The position numbers were made by a program, and so were the translations under genes. A model generated the notes under the pieces. It was given only the letters and a program-made list of their open reading frames with translations. It searched no databases and was not told the origin of the DNA. From Nitrososphaerota archaeon (GTDB taxonomy: Archaea; Thermoproteota; Nitrososphaeria; Conexivisphaerales; UBA164): a DNA stretch of 64,000 bases. Position 1 is the first letter of the stretch; each line of letters begins with the position of its first letter. Positions 3,410-48,615 of this stretch are shown here, piece by piece. The stretch covers positions 23,001 through 87,000 of the forward strand of contig WYER01000033.1 of NCBI GenBank assembly GCA_009903795.1, in the 5' to 3' direction.

Positions 3410-4513
3410 ATGGTAGATCTGCTGGAGTACGAAGGAAAAACCATATTCAAGCAGTACGGGATACCAGTCCCAAAATTTTTAGTTGTCTCAGATGAAAAAG
3501 ACATACCTGATTTTAATGAGAAGATGGTCATAAAAGCACAAGTTCCTACTGGAGGAAGAGGTAAAAGAGGAGGGGTAAGGATAGTAAATAATAAAGAAGA
3601 AGCTATAAAGGCTATGAAAGAAATAAAAAACATAGACTTCGATGGATACAGGGCTGAAAAATTTATTCTTGAAAAAGCATATAATGTTAGAAAGGAACTT
3701 TACATCAGTGTAACTCTCGATAGAAGTTCGGAAATGCCTGTAGTCTTGGCGTCAGCTGAAGGTGGAGTTGATATAAACTCAGTTCCTCAGGAAAAAATAT
3801 ACAAGAAACCGATAAACCCCTTTGTTGGAGTAACTGAATACTTAAAAAGGGAACTTTCAAAATTTCTTAATCTAACACCAGAACAGGCGCAGGAAATGGG
3901 AAAAATTCTGTCAGGCCTGTATAACATATATGATCGGTTAGATGCATCACTGGCTGAAATAAACCCGTTAGGTTTGACAGACAATGGCCTTATAGCGCTC
4001 GATTCAAAGATAACTATAGAAGACGATGCCCTATTTAGACATAAAGATATACCTGTAAGGTATTTCGGGCTAGATGAAATAGAAATAGAAGCGAAGAAAA
4101 AAGGGTTATCATTTGTAAAACTTGAAGGCGATATAGGGATAATAGCTAATGGAGCAGGTCTTAATATGGCTACTATTGATCTTATAGCCCAGGCAGGGGG
4201 TAAGCCAGCAAACTTTTTTGATCTTGGAGGCACTGATGATCCGGAAAAAGTAATTCAGGCAATAGAGCTCGCTTCAAAGGTCACAAACAAGGTTCTTTTT
4301 ATAAATATATTTGGAGGAGTAACTAGGTGTGATACAGTAGCAAGGGGCGTAGTACAGGCTATTAATGAACTAAAACCAAAGTTCAAACTCGTAGTAAGAA
4401 TAAGAGGGGCAAACGAAGAAGAAGGGAGAAAAATACTTTTAGAAAACAAAATAGAATCAATGCTTAACTTGGACGAAGCTGTAGAGCGTGTAGTCAAGCT
4501 TGCTGGTGAATGA
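3410..4513 (+). CDS. sucC: Succinyl-CoA synthetase beta subunit
   Basis: LLEYEGK, KAQVPTGGRGKRGG, EINPL, NGAGLNMAT, PANFFDLGG, NIFGG motifs. Confidence 0.95.
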   Translation: MVDLLEYEGKTIFKQYGIPVPKFLVVSDEKDIPDFNEKMVIKAQVPTGGRGKRGGVRIVNNKEEAIKAMKEIKNIDFDGYRAEKFILEKAYNVRKELYISVTLDRSSEMPVVLASAEGGVDINSVPQEKIYKKPINPFVGVTEYLKRELSKFLNLTPEQAQEMGKILSGLYNIYDRLDASLAEINPLGLTDNGLIALDSKITIEDDALFRHKDIPVRYFGLDEIEIEAKKKGLSFVKLEGDIGIIANGAGLNMATIDLIAQAGGKPANFFDLGGTDDPEKVIQAIELASKVTNKVLFINIFGGVTRCDTVARGVVQAINELKPKFKLVVRIRGANEEEGRKILLENKIESMLNLDEAVERVVKLAGE

Positions 4514-12421: not shown

Positions 12422-12597
12422 ATGATAACTTTGATAATTATTTACATATTAATGTAGCGTTTGTTATGATCATTATAGATTTTTACGATTTAGTAAATAA
12501 TTATGCATCTCAGAGTAAAATGTTTGGAAAAGTAAAAAGAAGTTAAAAATTGGAAATCTCTAAAAAGTTTATAAACGACAACCATATGAGCGTTATT

Positions 12598-12765
12598 ATG
12601 CCTATAGCTGATCCAGTTAAAAGGCAGATAGCAGTTCAAAGAAAATTAATGCATAAAATATGCATGAAGTGCGGAGCTAAAAACTCAATTTCTGCGGTAA
12701 GATGCAGAAAGTGCGGAAGTAAAGCTTTAAGGCTTCAGAACAGAGAATTAGGAGCTAAGAAGTAA
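12598..12765 (+). CDS. rpl40e: Ribosomal protein eL40
   Basis: KICMKCGAKN...RCRKC Zn ribbon; TTTATAAA about 23 nt upstream of ATG 12598. Confidence 0.93.
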   Translation: MPIADPVKRQIAVQRKLMHKICMKCGAKNSISAVRCRKCGSKALRLQNRELGAKK

Positions 12766-12766
12766 A

Positions 12767-14806
12767 GTGTTAGGGGCCGGTGGTGTAGCCTGGTCAGCAC
12801 ACCGCCTTGACGCGGCGGAGGTCGCCGGTTCGAATCCGGCCCGGCCCATTTTAATAATAGCAGAGAAAAACGATGCTGCAAAAAGAATAGCATTTGCGCT
12901 CGATCCTTCTTATAAAAAGCTTTCTGTGGACGGAGTCCCCGTTTACACAGGTTTATGGAATTCTACAAAGATTTATGTAATACCAGCAAGGGGGCATATT
13001 TATACTTTAAAAACAGACGTTGCAGAGCTGAGTCTATTTCCAGTATTAGACGTCGAATGGGTTCCGGTAGCAGATGGCTACGTTGTAAAACTTTTGAATG
13101 TGATAAAAAAATTCATTAAAGAATCATCAGAAATTATTATAGCGTGTGACTATGACATTGAAGGCGAAACCATAGGATATAACATAGTAAAGTATAACGG
13201 AGGCTTTGAAAAGATCGTTAAAAGGGCTAAGTTTTCGACATTAACGGTAGAAGAGTTAAAGCAAAGCTTTAACAGCCTTTTGTCGCGAGAAAAATGGCTT
13301 ATGGCCGACGCAGGAAGAACAAGACATTATATTGATTATATATGGGGTATAAGCCTTTCCCGCCTTTTAATGAATGAGGTAAGGCGCAGTACAGGTAAAA
13401 GTTTAAGTCTGAGCATAGGCAGGGTACAGGGCCCTACTTTAATTGAAATTTATAACAGGGAATCAGAAATAAATTCATACGTACCAAAACCATACTGGAA
13501 GTTTAAAGCTATAGGCGAACTTAGGGGCCAGAAATTCGAACTTTCAGGTCCAAATTTAAAAAGCGTAGACGAAGTTGAAGTTGCAAAAAAATTAAAGGGA
13601 AAATACGGCAAAGTTGTCTTTTTTGATAAAGACATTGAAGAAATCAAACCTCCTTATCCTTTTAATCTTTCAGACCTGCAAAAAGAAGCGTACAGACTTT
13701 TTGGAATTCAACCTTGGGAATCGCTTTCAATTTTGGAGAAATTGTATCTAAGTGCCCTTATATCTTATCCTAGAACAAGTTCTCAGAAATTGCCGCCTAC
13801 AATAAATTATAGATCTATACTTTCAAAACTCGGACAAAGATATAAAGAAGCAGGAAACGTCTCAAGGTCTCATCCTGTAGAGGGACCTATGGATGACCCC
13901 GCGCATCCCGCAATATACCCAACAGGTGAACTGCAACATTTAACAGGCAGCGAGTATAAGATTTATGATCTTGTTGCAAGAAGATTCATAAGTTCTTTTT
14001 ACAGGAACGTCAGAGTTGCGAAAAAGTACATAAAAGTCAGGGCAGATGGGTTTGACTTAGAAGCTGACGGAGCTGCCGTGATCGATAAGGGATGGCTGGA
14101 AGTTTATCCTTTTAGGGAAATAAGGGAGAAAAGCATACCAGATGCTGCAATTGGTGAAGAAATCTTGATAAAAGATGTTAATGTAGAACTAACTTTTACT
14201 AAACCCCCTTCAAGATATACTCCGTCTAGCCTCCTCGAATGGATGGAGACTAACGAGATAGGTACAAAGGCTACAAGGGCGGAGATAATAAAAACGCTTT
14301 ACAAAAGGGGATACATAAGGGGCAACAAGATAGAAATAACAGAGCTAGGATTTAGCGTAGCTAGATACTTTAGTTTTTCTCAGATAATAACTCTCGAGAT
14401 GACAAGAAAGCTCGAAAAATCTTTGGAAGACATTGAATTTGGAAAAGCTTATCCAAGTGAAATACTTAAAGAGAGCGCAATGTTTCTAATAGAAGAATTA
14501 AAAAAAGCTAAATACACAGAGGAGATGGTAGAACTTACAAAAAAGTACTTGGCAGCTGGAACCGGCGAATCATTTGGAAAATGTCCAGTATGCGGCAAAG
14601 GCGATTTGATACTACATGTATCCCAGGCAGGAAAAAGATATTTAAAATGCAGTGTGTGCGGGGCATCTGCTCCTCTTCCACGAAAAGGAAAGCTCGCATC
14701 TGCAAAGAAAAACTGTAGCTATTGCGGATGGCCCTTGATAAAAAGAGGTGATTGGGTGTTTTGTCCAAATCCGAATTGCCCAAGCAGCAAGCTAAAAAAT
14801 GCATAG
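12767..14806 (+). CDS. topA: Type IA DNA topoisomerase with C-terminal Zn ribbons; start uncertain (GTG 12767 or non-canonical ATT 12848)
   Basis: IIAEK TOPRIM, CDYDIEGE, SIGRVQGPTL, ISYPRT catalytic Tyr, AHPAIYPT, IGTKATRA. Confidence 0.93.
   Translation: MLGAGGVAWSAHRLDAAEVAGSNPARPILIIAEKNDAAKRIAFALDPSYKKLSVDGVPVYTGLWNSTKIYVIPARGHIYTLKTDVAELSLFPVLDVEWVPVADGYVVKLLNVIKKFIKESSEIIIACDYDIEGETIGYNIVKYNGGFEKIVKRAKFSTLTVEELKQSFNSLLSREKWLMADAGRTRHYIDYIWGISLSRLLMNEVRRSTGKSLSLSIGRVQGPTLIEIYNRESEINSYVPKPYWKFKAIGELRGQKFELSGPNLKSVDEVEVAKKLKGKYGKVVFFDKDIEEIKPPYPFNLSDLQKEAYRLFGIQPWESLSILEKLYLSALISYPRTSSQKLPPTINYRSILSKLGQRYKEAGNVSRSHPVEGPMDDPAHPAIYPTGELQHLTGSEYKIYDLVARRFISSFYRNVRVAKKYIKVRADGFDLEADGAAVIDKGWLEVYPFREIREKSIPDAAIGEEILIKDVNVELTFTKPPSRYTPSSLLEWMETNEIGTKATRAEIIKTLYKRGYIRGNKIEITELGFSVARYFSFSQIITLEMTRKLEKSLEDIEFGKAYPSEILKESAMFLIEELKKAKYTEEMVELTKKYLAAGTGESFGKCPVCGKGDLILHVSQAGKRYLKCSVCGASAPLPRKGKLASAKKNCSYCGWPLIKRGDWVFCPNPNCPSSKLKNA
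12774..12848 (+). tRNA. tRNA-Val(GAC)
   Basis: Cloverleaf: GGGCCGG/CCGGCCC acceptor, CCGCC-TTGACGC-GGCGG anticodon arm, GCCGG-TTCGAAT-CCGGC T arm, discriminator A, no encoded CCA. Confidence 0.95.
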
Positions 14807-15030
14807 TTTGTGGATCTTATTCTGAAGAAGGGTTATTGTGTTTTAAACACAAAACGGCCGCGAAGAGTCTAACTGAAGGTTATAAATACTGGAAAGAAGC
14901 TTTTAACATCTCTTTTAATGAATATTTGAAAGAAGTAAGAAAAAGGTCTGAAACGGGGACTTGGGTTAAAGAGATAATTGATTATGTCATTGCTTCTAAT
15001 GATTTTAATATACTTTTAGAGACTTGTTAA
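14752..15030 (+). CDS. Small hypothetical protein, possibly Zn-binding (CxxC...CxxH)
   Basis: Overlaps topA 3' end; GAGGTGA at 14745 suggests TTG 14761 as start. Confidence 0.6.
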   Translation: MGVLSKSELPKQQAKKCIVCGSYSEEGLLCFKHKTAAKSLTEGYKYWKEAFNISFNEYLKEVRKRSETGTWVKEIIDYVIASNDFNILLETC

Positions 15031-22391: not shown

Positions 22392-23498
22392 TTATGTAAA
22401 ATCAGAATGCATCATTTTCATATCCGTCTCGCTTATGTTTTCTTTTTCAGCAACATAATGTATAAAGCTCTCTAAGAAAAACAGGGTTCTTAGCTCAAAG
22501 ACAGAGTAGGTTGGATCTTGTGGAAAATAACTGCTCCTGAGGCCTTTGAGCTTAACTATCTGTCTCCCTGGAATTGTCAGAGTAAGGTCAGAAACTTTTG
22601 AAAGCCTTGAATCCTGAAAAGATGTCACGACAGCAACCTTGGCTCCCTTATTTTTTGCTTTTTCTGCCAAGTTAGCAAAAAATTCAGAAGCCGATCCGGA
22701 AATTATAAATACGAGGTCGTCCCGTCTTACGGCAATGCTTCCTTTATCAAGCCAAAAATAAACTAGCCTTTCAGCATTACCTTTAGAAAGGTGTCTTAGT
22801 CTTGTAGAGAAAAATTTTCCAACTATTCCACTAAGTCCTTCTCCTAAAACAGTTGTCTTTTGTTTTGCATATTCTGACGCCTTTGGTAAAATTTCATAAA
22901 GCAGTTCATAATAATCTGATGGCGGCTCAAACTCCTTTATCAATGATACTAGCTTTCTGTATGATTCGATTAGCTCTTGCCCTCTTATATACGATATAAC
23001 TGATAAGAGGAATAACAAAGATCTTAACTCGAAAAGCGTTCCGAGAGGAGTTAAAGGTGTCTTTGAAGTTCCAAGAAGGTTATCTACAAAATAATCAGAT
23101 TCTTTCCACTTTCTAGCTCCTGGGATCAAGATTATTTTATCTGAAATTGCTGCAAGAGGACTAGCTTGGTCGCTAGTTAAAGAAATTATAAAAGATCCAC
23201 CTTCTTTTGCTACTTTAGCCACTTCTACCGTATATTGTGTAGATCCGCTTCCGGATATTGCAACAAGCAAATCACATGGCCCAAATATATATGGAACATC
23301 ATTTGGACCAAAAGTTTGATCCACACCTATATTTCTCAAAAATTTGGCAAACGCATCAGCTACGTCTCCTGATCTTCCGGTTCCAAAAACTATAACTCTT
23401 TTTGAATTTGTTATCCTGCCGATGATCCATTGTAGATCTTCATCTGGTTCATATGCAGAGACAGTCTCAACCAACCTTTTATAGCTCACGACATACAC
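22392..23498 (-). CDS. Tandem SIS-domain protein, 6-phospho-3-hexuloisomerase-like
   Basis: GTGRSG/ISGSGST/PLGTLFE in the first half; GEGLSG/ISGS/SVFE/MHSD in the second half. Confidence 0.8.
   Translation of the reverse strand: MYVVSYKRLVETVSAYEPDEDLQWIIGRITNSKRVIVFGTGRSGDVADAFAKFLRNIGVDQTFGPNDVPYIFGPCDLLVAISGSGSTQYTVEVAKVAKEGGSFIISLTSDQASPLAAISDKIILIPGARKWKESDYFVDNLLGTSKTPLTPLGTLFELRSLLFLLSVISYIRGQELIESYRKLVSLIKEFEPPSDYYELLYEILPKASEYAKQKTTVLGEGLSGIVGKFFSTRLRHLSKGNAERLVYFWLDKGSIAVRRDDLVFIISGSASEFFANLAEKAKNKGAKVAVVTSFQDSRLSKVSDLTLTIPGRQIVKLKGLRSSYFPQDPTYSVFELRTLFFLESFIHYVAEKENISETDMKMMHSDFT

Positions 23499-48004: not shown

Positions 48005-48615
<611 letters not shown>

Follow-up and report, generated by a model that had tools for sequence, protein, structure and literature searches.

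In an archaeon of the Nitrososphaerota, a member of a heat-loving group, the gene for a DNA topoisomerase, topA, begins with a complete transfer RNA (tRNA) gene for valine that lies in the frame of the protein. The locus belongs to the window analysed here, a stretch of 64,000 nucleotides (nt) comprising positions 23,001 to 87,000 of contig WYER01000033.1, forward strand; all coordinates below are those of the window. The reading that we find slightly easier to believe than to doubt is that a single transcript carries the tRNA and topA, that TopA is initiated at a GTG codon (position 12767) ahead of the tRNA and is read through it, acquiring a disordered N-terminal extension of 27 amino acids (aa), and that cutting of the tRNA by the ribonucleases (RNases) P and Z ends the message.

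The anatomy of the junction is compact. The upstream gene, rpl40e (12598..12765, plus strand), encodes ribosomal protein L40e (55 aa); the product scores 66.6 bits against NCBIfam NF003161, above the curated cutoff of 54, and 22.9 bits against Pfam L40e (PF01020), slightly under the cutoff of 23. Read directly from the sequence, its stop codon TAA (12763-12765) is followed by a single A (12766) and then by GTG (12767-12769, plus strand), the putative start of topA. The tRNA-Val (anticodon GAC; 12774..12848, plus strand) is 75 nt long, does not encode CCA and is recognized by both ARAGORN and Rfam. Its discriminator base, A12848, doubles as the first base of the topA codon ATT, which opens the series ATT TTA ATA ATA GCA GAG AAA (ILIIAEK; 12848..12868, plus strand), the first strand of the TOPRIM domain, where a conserved Glu is encoded. 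The topA open reading frame (ORF; 12767..14806, plus strand), identified from the ORF list, Pfam and TIGR01057, runs through the whole tRNA without a stop and yields 679 aa when counted from GTG 12767, or 652 aa from the junction codon. The G+C content is 0.64 across 12750-12849 versus about 0.25-0.45 in the flanks. A preliminary description of this DNA had placed a complete tRNA-Val in frame inside the 5' end of topA, and ARAGORN, Rfam and the ORF list confirmed all the coordinates involved; its statement that no ATG, GTG or TTG separates the tRNA from ILIIAEK, which leaves GTG 12767 as the only canonical in-frame start, is borne out by the sequence as well.

The protein is an archaeal type IA DNA topoisomerase. 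The TIGR01057 model (topA_arch) gives 563.3 bits, above its curated cutoff of 458, and Pfam finds Toprim at residues 29-157 (6.7e-13) and Topoisom_bac at residues 178-567 (1.9e-102). Residues E33, D128, D130, E132, Y334 and R336, which we take to be the conserved acidic TOPRIM residues and the active-site tyrosine motif, are invariant in 30/30 aligned homologues, as is Lys34. An AlphaFold2 model of the protein reaches a predicted local distance difference test (pLDDT) score of 87.4. In this model strand 1 spans residues 28-32 and opens at the junction codon, which makes that codon part of the TopA fold. The 27 residues ahead of it behave differently: pLDDT is below 50 over residues 1-23 and only 26-30 over residues 1-20, and the extension is thus predicted to be disordered. 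Nor is it matched in other TopA proteins. When 1.84 billion representatives were searched, the majority of the 150 best matches aligned from query residue 26-31 onward and none of them before residue 13. The extension looks like a tolerated by-product.

The tRNA, for its part, aligns with the full Rfam model RF00005 (1-71/71; 65.9 bits against a gathering threshold of 29, E 9.8e-14), with no non-canonical pairs flagged in the alignment. Between the window and L009, a member of the same clade, the tRNA is identical at 75/75 positions, while third codon positions agree at only 26/56 sites of rpl40e and at 5/25 over the opening 25 codons of topA. Comparison with a second clade gives 69/75 identical positions in the tRNA; across both comparisons, flanking third codon positions are identical at 5/25 to 30/56. 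A tRNA that stays nearly invariant while the third codon positions on both sides are saturated, as they are with L009, has evidently been kept as RNA, and this pattern argues for a real gene under RNA-level constraint, functional rather than a relic. The codons read by tRNA-Val(GAC), GTT and GTC, account for 494/942 valine codons in 34 ORFs of the window, which contains only two tRNA genes over its 64 kb.

A single scan of species-representative genomes recovered 77 topA loci, to all of which ARAGORN was applied. Twelve of these, with TopA identity of at least 52%, are referred to as close loci; counts of complete junctions refer to the window plus 10 loci. Comparison of the rpl40e-tRNA-topA junction found the same arrangement in 11/12 close loci, all from related Nitrososphaeria and distributed over two clades: tRNA-Val(GAC) ends at the topA match in L001-L005, L007-L009, L012 and L013, and the contig of L011 starts inside the same tRNA. 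In all 11 complete junctions, the 3' end of rpl40e reads GCN AAG AAG TAA and is separated from the tRNA by exactly 8 nt; the start of the L40e protein (MPIADP...) is conserved in 11/11 sequences. In clade 1 topA follows directly upon the discriminator base, whereas in clade 2 there are 6 nt more (ACT CCN/TCT). No tRNA abuts topA in any of the 65 more distant loci scanned with ARAGORN. A word-indexed protein search agrees with this picture. The close relatives that it returned were all Nitrososphaeria metagenome bins and fell into two length classes: 5/5 relatives of 679/680 aa start as M-[L/S]-R-AGGVAWSAHRLDAAEVAGSNPARP-[T/I]-LIIAEK, a translation of the tRNA, and 5/5 proteins of the second clade (53-54% identity) start as MAGVAGSNPARPT[P/S]..., a translation of its 3' half. 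The clade-2 loci L007, L008, L012 and L013 read GAC ATG GCG from the anticodon onward, in the topA frame, against GAC GCG GCG in clade 1. It is at this ATG that gene callers begin the clade-2 protein (MAGVAGSNPARP...); the codon may be there by chance or may be a start that is used. Published models of this TopA disagree on its length (650, 651, 652 and 679/680 aa), and at least some current annotations of topA in these genomes are wrong.

A maximum-likelihood tree of TopA groups L006 with clade 1 at 98/96 support and places clade 2 outside them, (clade 2,(L006, clade 1)); long branches, that of L006 included, were flagged by the tool. By this topology, the junction is older than the divergence of the two clades, with a single loss in L006, the sole close locus lacking the tRNA. 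There (3940-4000 of L006), a TTAAATTTT element lies about 28 nt before a TTG start (MHEGHVLVIAEK). The neighbours are different ones, for example a CBS-domain-like ORF on the other strand. It seems that topA in L006 has moved and has been re-equipped with a start. Among the distant loci, a tRNA-Thr(TGT) on the same strand precedes topA in two from Micrarchaeota, by about 185 nt in L065 (tRNA at 3741-3815) and by about 95 nt in L067 (tRNA at 3516-3590); a tRNA upstream of topA, with a spacer, is thus present far off in the archaeal tree as well.

Two of the three frames of the tRNA are interrupted by stops, a TAG at nt 13 and a TGA at nt 35, and the tRNA lies entirely inside the topA ORF in the single frame that is open. 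The same holds for 11/11 complete junctions, including those of clade 2, where the 6 extra nucleotides preserve the frame. One might also imagine that L40e and TopA are made as a fusion through a +1 frameshift or read-through of the rpl40e stop. This was rejected: the rpl40e frame is closed by the TGA at nt 35 of the tRNA, a TAG at -25 interrupts the topA frame in clade 1, and no slippery site was seen.

Signals for initiation ahead of the tRNA are well preserved in clade 1. The GTG, at -7 from the tRNA, is the single canonical in-frame start in 7/7 sequences, and the block GGA GCT AAG AAG TAA A GTG in which it lies is invariant in all seven, L009 included; between the window and L009, 8/11 of the preceding codons and 3/4 of the nucleotides following the GTG differ. 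The block completes a Shine-Dalgarno (SD)-like AGGAG (12750..12754, plus strand), embedded in the last codons of rpl40e (TTA GGA GCT) and likewise present in 7/7 clade-1 sequences. Clade 2 encodes the same Gly-Ala as GGT GCA, so that GGA GCT is not demanded by the L40e protein. The GGAG ends at -13 before GTG 12767 and at -12 before another gene of the window (34789). Of the 19 operon-internal starts called in the window, 12 are preceded by one of the 4-mers GGTG, GGAG, GAGG and AGGT with its end between -18 and -4, the background frequency at random positions being 0.118; 5/19, as called, are GTG. On these comparisons GTG 12767 has a putative ribosome-binding motif in the register usual for the genome. 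More generally, two kinds of start can be told apart in the window: TTTAWA-type boxes stand about 25-30 nt ahead of the ATG of first genes (leaderless type), and genes inside operons, many of them with 4-nt ATGA/GTGA overlaps, show a GGTG(A) whose end lies 8-12 nt upstream.

Published work on archaeal initiation fits such a start. Passages of one article name AUG, GUG and UUG as archaeal start codons and state that in Sulfolobus solfataricus the SD motif is essential for a distal cistron, leaders without one being left untranslated in a cell-free system (PMC7531240). Termination-reinitiation, according to another, requires overlaps or very short distances (PMC10666635), a need that the 1-nt gap between the rpl40e stop and the GTG would satisfy. 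By their spacing on the same strand, the two genes look like a coupled pair, with a start within a few nucleotides of the upstream stop, in 7/7 clade-1 sequences and not in the 4 clade-2 loci.

Initiation at the other end of the tRNA has to be weighed against this. As in the punctuation of transcripts by tRNAs, and much like the mammalian mitochondrial mRNAs that are freed when tRNAs are excised, a topA messenger RNA (mRNA) could begin at 12849 after an RNase Z cut past A12848, or remain part of the uncut RNA, and be translated from a non-canonical start at ATT 12848, ATA 12854 or ATA 12857. We consider this improbable, if well worth discussing. The idea derives some appeal from the tightness of the junction, with 0 or 6 nt between tRNA and coding sequence in 12/12 sequences, and from the presence, in every one of them, of TTG or an Ile codon among the first 2-4 codons past the tRNA. 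ATT, ATC and ATA are listed as starts in translation table 11, and four public records follow this usage: P0009, P0010, P0013 and, for the window itself, P0001. Moreover, a start of this type needs no transit of the ribosome through a stable tRNA, and it does not depend on the upstream signals, which in clade 2 are poor.

The codons themselves tell a different story. The junction codon is ATT, ACT or ATC, and it is ACT in 7/12 sequences. The codon that follows in clade 1 always specifies Leu but is TTA in four cases, TTG in two, and CTC and CTT in one each; in clade 2, the two codons between ACT CCN/TCT and ATT ATA are ATT/ATA/GTA/CTA and then TTA/GTA/TTG/TTG. In 8/12 sequences the codon at the Leu position (TTA, CTC, CTT or GTA) has two mismatches from AUG. 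At no single position in the 12 junctions is a canonical or near-cognate start conserved after the tRNA, nor does an ATG occur at the tRNA/topA junction in any of the related genomes that have it. What is kept is the T at the second position, while first and third positions vary, the pattern of translated hydrophobic strand residues; judged by these substitutions, the junction codons, including those ahead of the proposed Ile starts, evolve as a coding sequence would. The Ile codons used as starts by NCBI are needed by the TopA fold in any event, since the conserved strand demands them, and ATA represents 63% of the Ile codons in the window; for the latter reason we dismissed the idea that ATA has been specially conserved as a start. 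Use of 12854 or 12857 would also shorten strand 1. No SD-like 4-mer is found in the 25 nt before the junction in 11/11 sequences, a 5' end made by RNase Z would not open with a start codon, and the invariant AGGAG...GTG block of clade 1 would be left unexplained. In the passages of PMC7531240, only AUG, GUG and UUG figure as archaeal starts ('AUU' occurs 0 times in the text), and leaders devoid of an SD motif are untranslated in S. solfataricus extracts.

The preliminary description had offered these as two alternatives, a tRNA translated as part of a 27-aa extension or a start at ATT/ATA. Both are still live, but the comparative evidence favours the translated tRNA over the ATT/ATA start, given the ACT at the junction in 7/12 sequences, the synonymous variation of Leu (TTA, TTG, CTC, CTT), the status of ATA as the commonest Ile codon, and the invariant GTG with its in-register AGGAG. 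Two other possibilities that it had raised are excluded. The loss of an ATG through an assembly error is contradicted by eleven independent assemblies with ATT, ACT or ATC at that codon. An internal promoter combined with a downstream start fails on both counts: no TATA-like element is conserved, and the first start available downstream lies past the invariant Glu33. The latter, the next canonical in-frame start after GTG 12767, is GTG 12926-12928 at residue 54, whose use would remove strand 1, the first helix and the invariant Glu33/Lys34.

Where, then, would the transcript begin? The TATA-like box TTTATAAA (12568..12575, plus strand), read from the sequence, lies 22 nt upstream of the rpl40e ATG, and AAGTTTATAAA is found with the same spacing in 11/11 sequences; boxes of this kind occur about 25-30 nt ahead of the ATG in many first genes of the window. 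This box is likely to be the single promoter of the unit, and the rpl40e mRNA would accordingly be leaderless. Past the rpl40e promoter, no TATA-like element is conserved among the relatives before the tRNA or topA. From the single conserved box ahead of rpl40e and the lack of any conserved one before the tRNA and topA, we infer that the three genes are carried on one transcript. A candidate internal promoter, TTTAAGG (12726-12732), was discarded; it lies 38 nt from the GTG and becomes CTCTAAGG or CCCTTAGG in relatives. Two other candidates met the same fate. An alternative RNA fold that would sequester the tRNA found no support, as the region 12700-12920 gives z = -1.03 and 28/200 shuffles fold as well. 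The SD-like GGAGGT within the tRNA (12817-12822) is ordinary tRNA sequence located 25 nt from the junction and would come nearer only if the T-arm hairpin were looped out.

If TopA is indeed translated through the tRNA, one could picture the following course of events. Transcription from the TATA box ahead of leaderless rpl40e would produce rpl40e, tRNA-Val(GAC) and topA as one unit, within which topA would have neither a separate promoter nor a start codon of its own. A ribosome would initiate at GTG 12767, aided by the AGGAG 12 nt upstream and by the proximity of the rpl40e stop 1 nt away, pass the 75-nt tRNA in its open frame and proceed into the TOPRIM domain. The product would be TopA with a disordered N-terminal extension of 27 residues, from which the tryptic peptides LGAGGVAWSAHR and LDAAEVAGSNPARPILIIAEK (or its Thr variant) would be expected. 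RNase P and RNase Z would excise the same 75 nt, once folded, as an ordinary tRNA-Val. These enzymes release tRNAs from their precursors and presumably act at the topA junction as well. Excision would separate topA from its only start, so that TopA would be made solely from transcripts whose tRNA is still uncut, and maturation of the tRNA would limit or end TopA synthesis on each transcript. Ribosomes already beyond the tRNA could finish, and translation and processing may be successive on one transcript. That tRNA processing should compete with TopA synthesis, as the preliminary description had proposed, is soundly argued, although the two could also be sequential, the RNA being translated first and cut later.

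It is tempting to go one step further and to view the 75-nt segment as both a working tRNA-Val gene and a coding sequence obligatory for an enzyme of essential type, with TopA made only before RNase P and RNase Z excise the tRNA. The closeness of the ribosome to the polymerase would then set the yield of TopA, and the arrangement would act as a timer linking DNA relaxation to translation and growth, long kept in one archaeal lineage. We offer this version with some hesitation and would not count it as probable.

Several considerations weigh against translation through the tRNA. Co-transcription, initiation at GTG 12767, passage of the ribosome through the tRNA and the consequences of processing are all inferred steps of expression. 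The argument from the reading frame involves just two spacer lengths (0 and 6 nt), a match expected by chance at about 1/3 x 1/3. With a G+C content of 73%, the tRNA is strongly structured and an efficient substrate for RNase P and RNase Z, so that read-through transcripts may be rare. The gene starts behind the count of SD-like motifs are crude longest-ORF calls, and the members of clade 1 other than L009 and L011 are closely related, which reduces 7/7 to about three independent lineages. NCBI records of relatives place the start at the second Ile codon or the preceding one (P0009 MAEKND, P0010 MIAEKND, P0013 MAEKND). Another difficulty comes from clade 2, which has no GTG after the rpl40e stop. 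Its in-frame candidates are a TTG at -25 and a GTG at -22, both inside rpl40e, and the ATG at tRNA nt 39-41; no SD-like 4-mer was found upstream of any of them, the search window for the ATG being displaced by 2 nt. This ATG lies about 47 nt past the rpl40e stop, too far for reinitiation by the account given in PMC10666635. The weakness of these signals makes the mechanism less clear in clade 2 and weakens the case for read-through as the ancestral solution.

Two further explanations can be given short shrift. The tRNA might be removed in the manner of an intron, with GTG TTA G joined to TT TTA ATA ATA GCA to encode M-L-V-L-I-I-A-E-K, which we regard as very improbable. Archaea do splice some RNAs with protein enzymes, the length of the tRNA (75 nt, or 25 codons) is divisible by three, and ligation would leave an N-terminus much like those of ordinary TopA proteins, for example MHEGHVLVIAEK of L006. 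Against this, we know of no enzyme that rejoins the products of RNase P and RNase Z, an in-frame length is trivial once the frame is established, and the region 12700-12920 folds no better than background, though no systematic search for bulge-helix-bulge motifs was made. As for an assembly or sequencing error, or a topA gene that is dying and unexpressed, its one recommendation is the missing canonical start beside the TOPRIM motif, and the recurrence of the junction in 11 independent assemblies, the intact topA ORF in all of them, the catalytic-motif residues invariant in 30/30 sequences and the confidently predicted fold leave it with next to no probability.

The remainder of the region offers two points of comparison. 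The other tRNA of the window, tRNA-Arg(CCG) (48005-48079, minus strand), is preceded by an ORF (48070-48615, minus strand) that ends with a TAG in the first 10 nt of the tRNA, the 5' end of which thus supplies the stop codon. On the downstream side of the tRNA, a normal AT-rich spacer and promoter-like boxes precede the next ATG, which indicates that the type of junction seen at topA is not general in this genome. At the other end of topA, a small ORF (14752-15030, plus strand; likely start TTG 14761, preceded by GGTGA at 14747-14751) overlaps the 3' end of the gene in the -1 frame. Its product matches the C-terminal part of a topoisomerase I model (NCBIfam PRK05776, positions 601-673 of 677, E 8.9e-12), and tblastn places it directly downstream of topA in 12/12 close loci, with weaker matches in L010 and L015. 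A -1 frameshift into this ORF at A AAA AAT (14794-14800), conceivable in principle, found no support: judged at the protein level, where relatives end in ...KIKSA, ...KIRNA or ...KIRSA, the A-run seems not to be conserved.

The nearest described case is that of the C/D box small RNA (sRNA) genes of Pyrobaculum that overlap ORFs. Passages of the report on them describe a structured RNA co-transcribed with an archaeal ORF and overlapping its 5' end in the sense orientation, with the start codon within or before the RNA, so that excision of an sRNA holding the start must cut the mRNA (PMC6009581). The same passages put conserved overlap with protein genes as more than 40-fold less likely for tRNA genes (PMC6009581). 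The topA junction differs in that the RNA is a complete tRNA, conserved to the full extent expected of a functional one, and lies wholly inside the ORF.

Mitochondria provide another analogy, the tRNA punctuation of their polycistronic transcripts (PMC3790967). Cuts by RNase P and RNase Z set the ends of the neighbours there, and ATT and ATA are used as starts. Here as there, a tRNA abuts a coding sequence without an untranslated spacer, on what would at topA likewise be a polycistronic transcript. The resemblance stops at the 3' end of the tRNA, where mitochondrial genes have a usable start and topA has no conserved one. Instead, a conserved canonical start and an SD-like motif lie upstream of a tRNA that is in frame with the gene; furthermore, the topA junction is a single locus on a cellular archaeal chromosome, not a genome-wide device, and the other tRNA of the window has a normal spacer. 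In the thrU-tyrU-glyT-thrT-tufB operon of Escherichia coli, tRNAs and mRNA share a promoter and are separated by processing, and downstream of the tRNAs the protein gene retains a ribosome-binding site and a start codon of its own. Processing at the archaeal locus, in contrast, would remove the start of topA. Finally, with a putative start 1 nt after the upstream stop, an SD-like motif inside the upstream gene and a presumably polycistronic archaeal mRNA, the locus recalls termination-reinitiation coupling (PMC6728339, PMC10666635), except that the downstream ORF opens with 27 codons that are a tRNA gene. The candidate starts of clade 2, which precede the stop by 11-14 nt or come about 47 nt after it, fall outside the usual -4/-1 pattern. 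A search of the literature that left subscription journals aside brought up neither the tRNA-topA junction nor any other archaeal ORF with a tRNA inside it.

Should initiation take place instead at ATT or ATA on the processed RNA, mitochondrial tRNA punctuation, with leaderless starts other than AUG, would have its first counterpart among the archaea. If, on the other hand, TopA is translated through the tRNA, the junction would represent a natural case of one sequence selected both as a full tRNA and as protein-coding RNA, in which RNA processing and translation compete or alternate on the same molecule. It would provide a simple archaeal system in which the speed of tRNA folding and cutting is set against that of the first ribosome, and it would bear on how non-coding RNA genes become embedded in ORFs.

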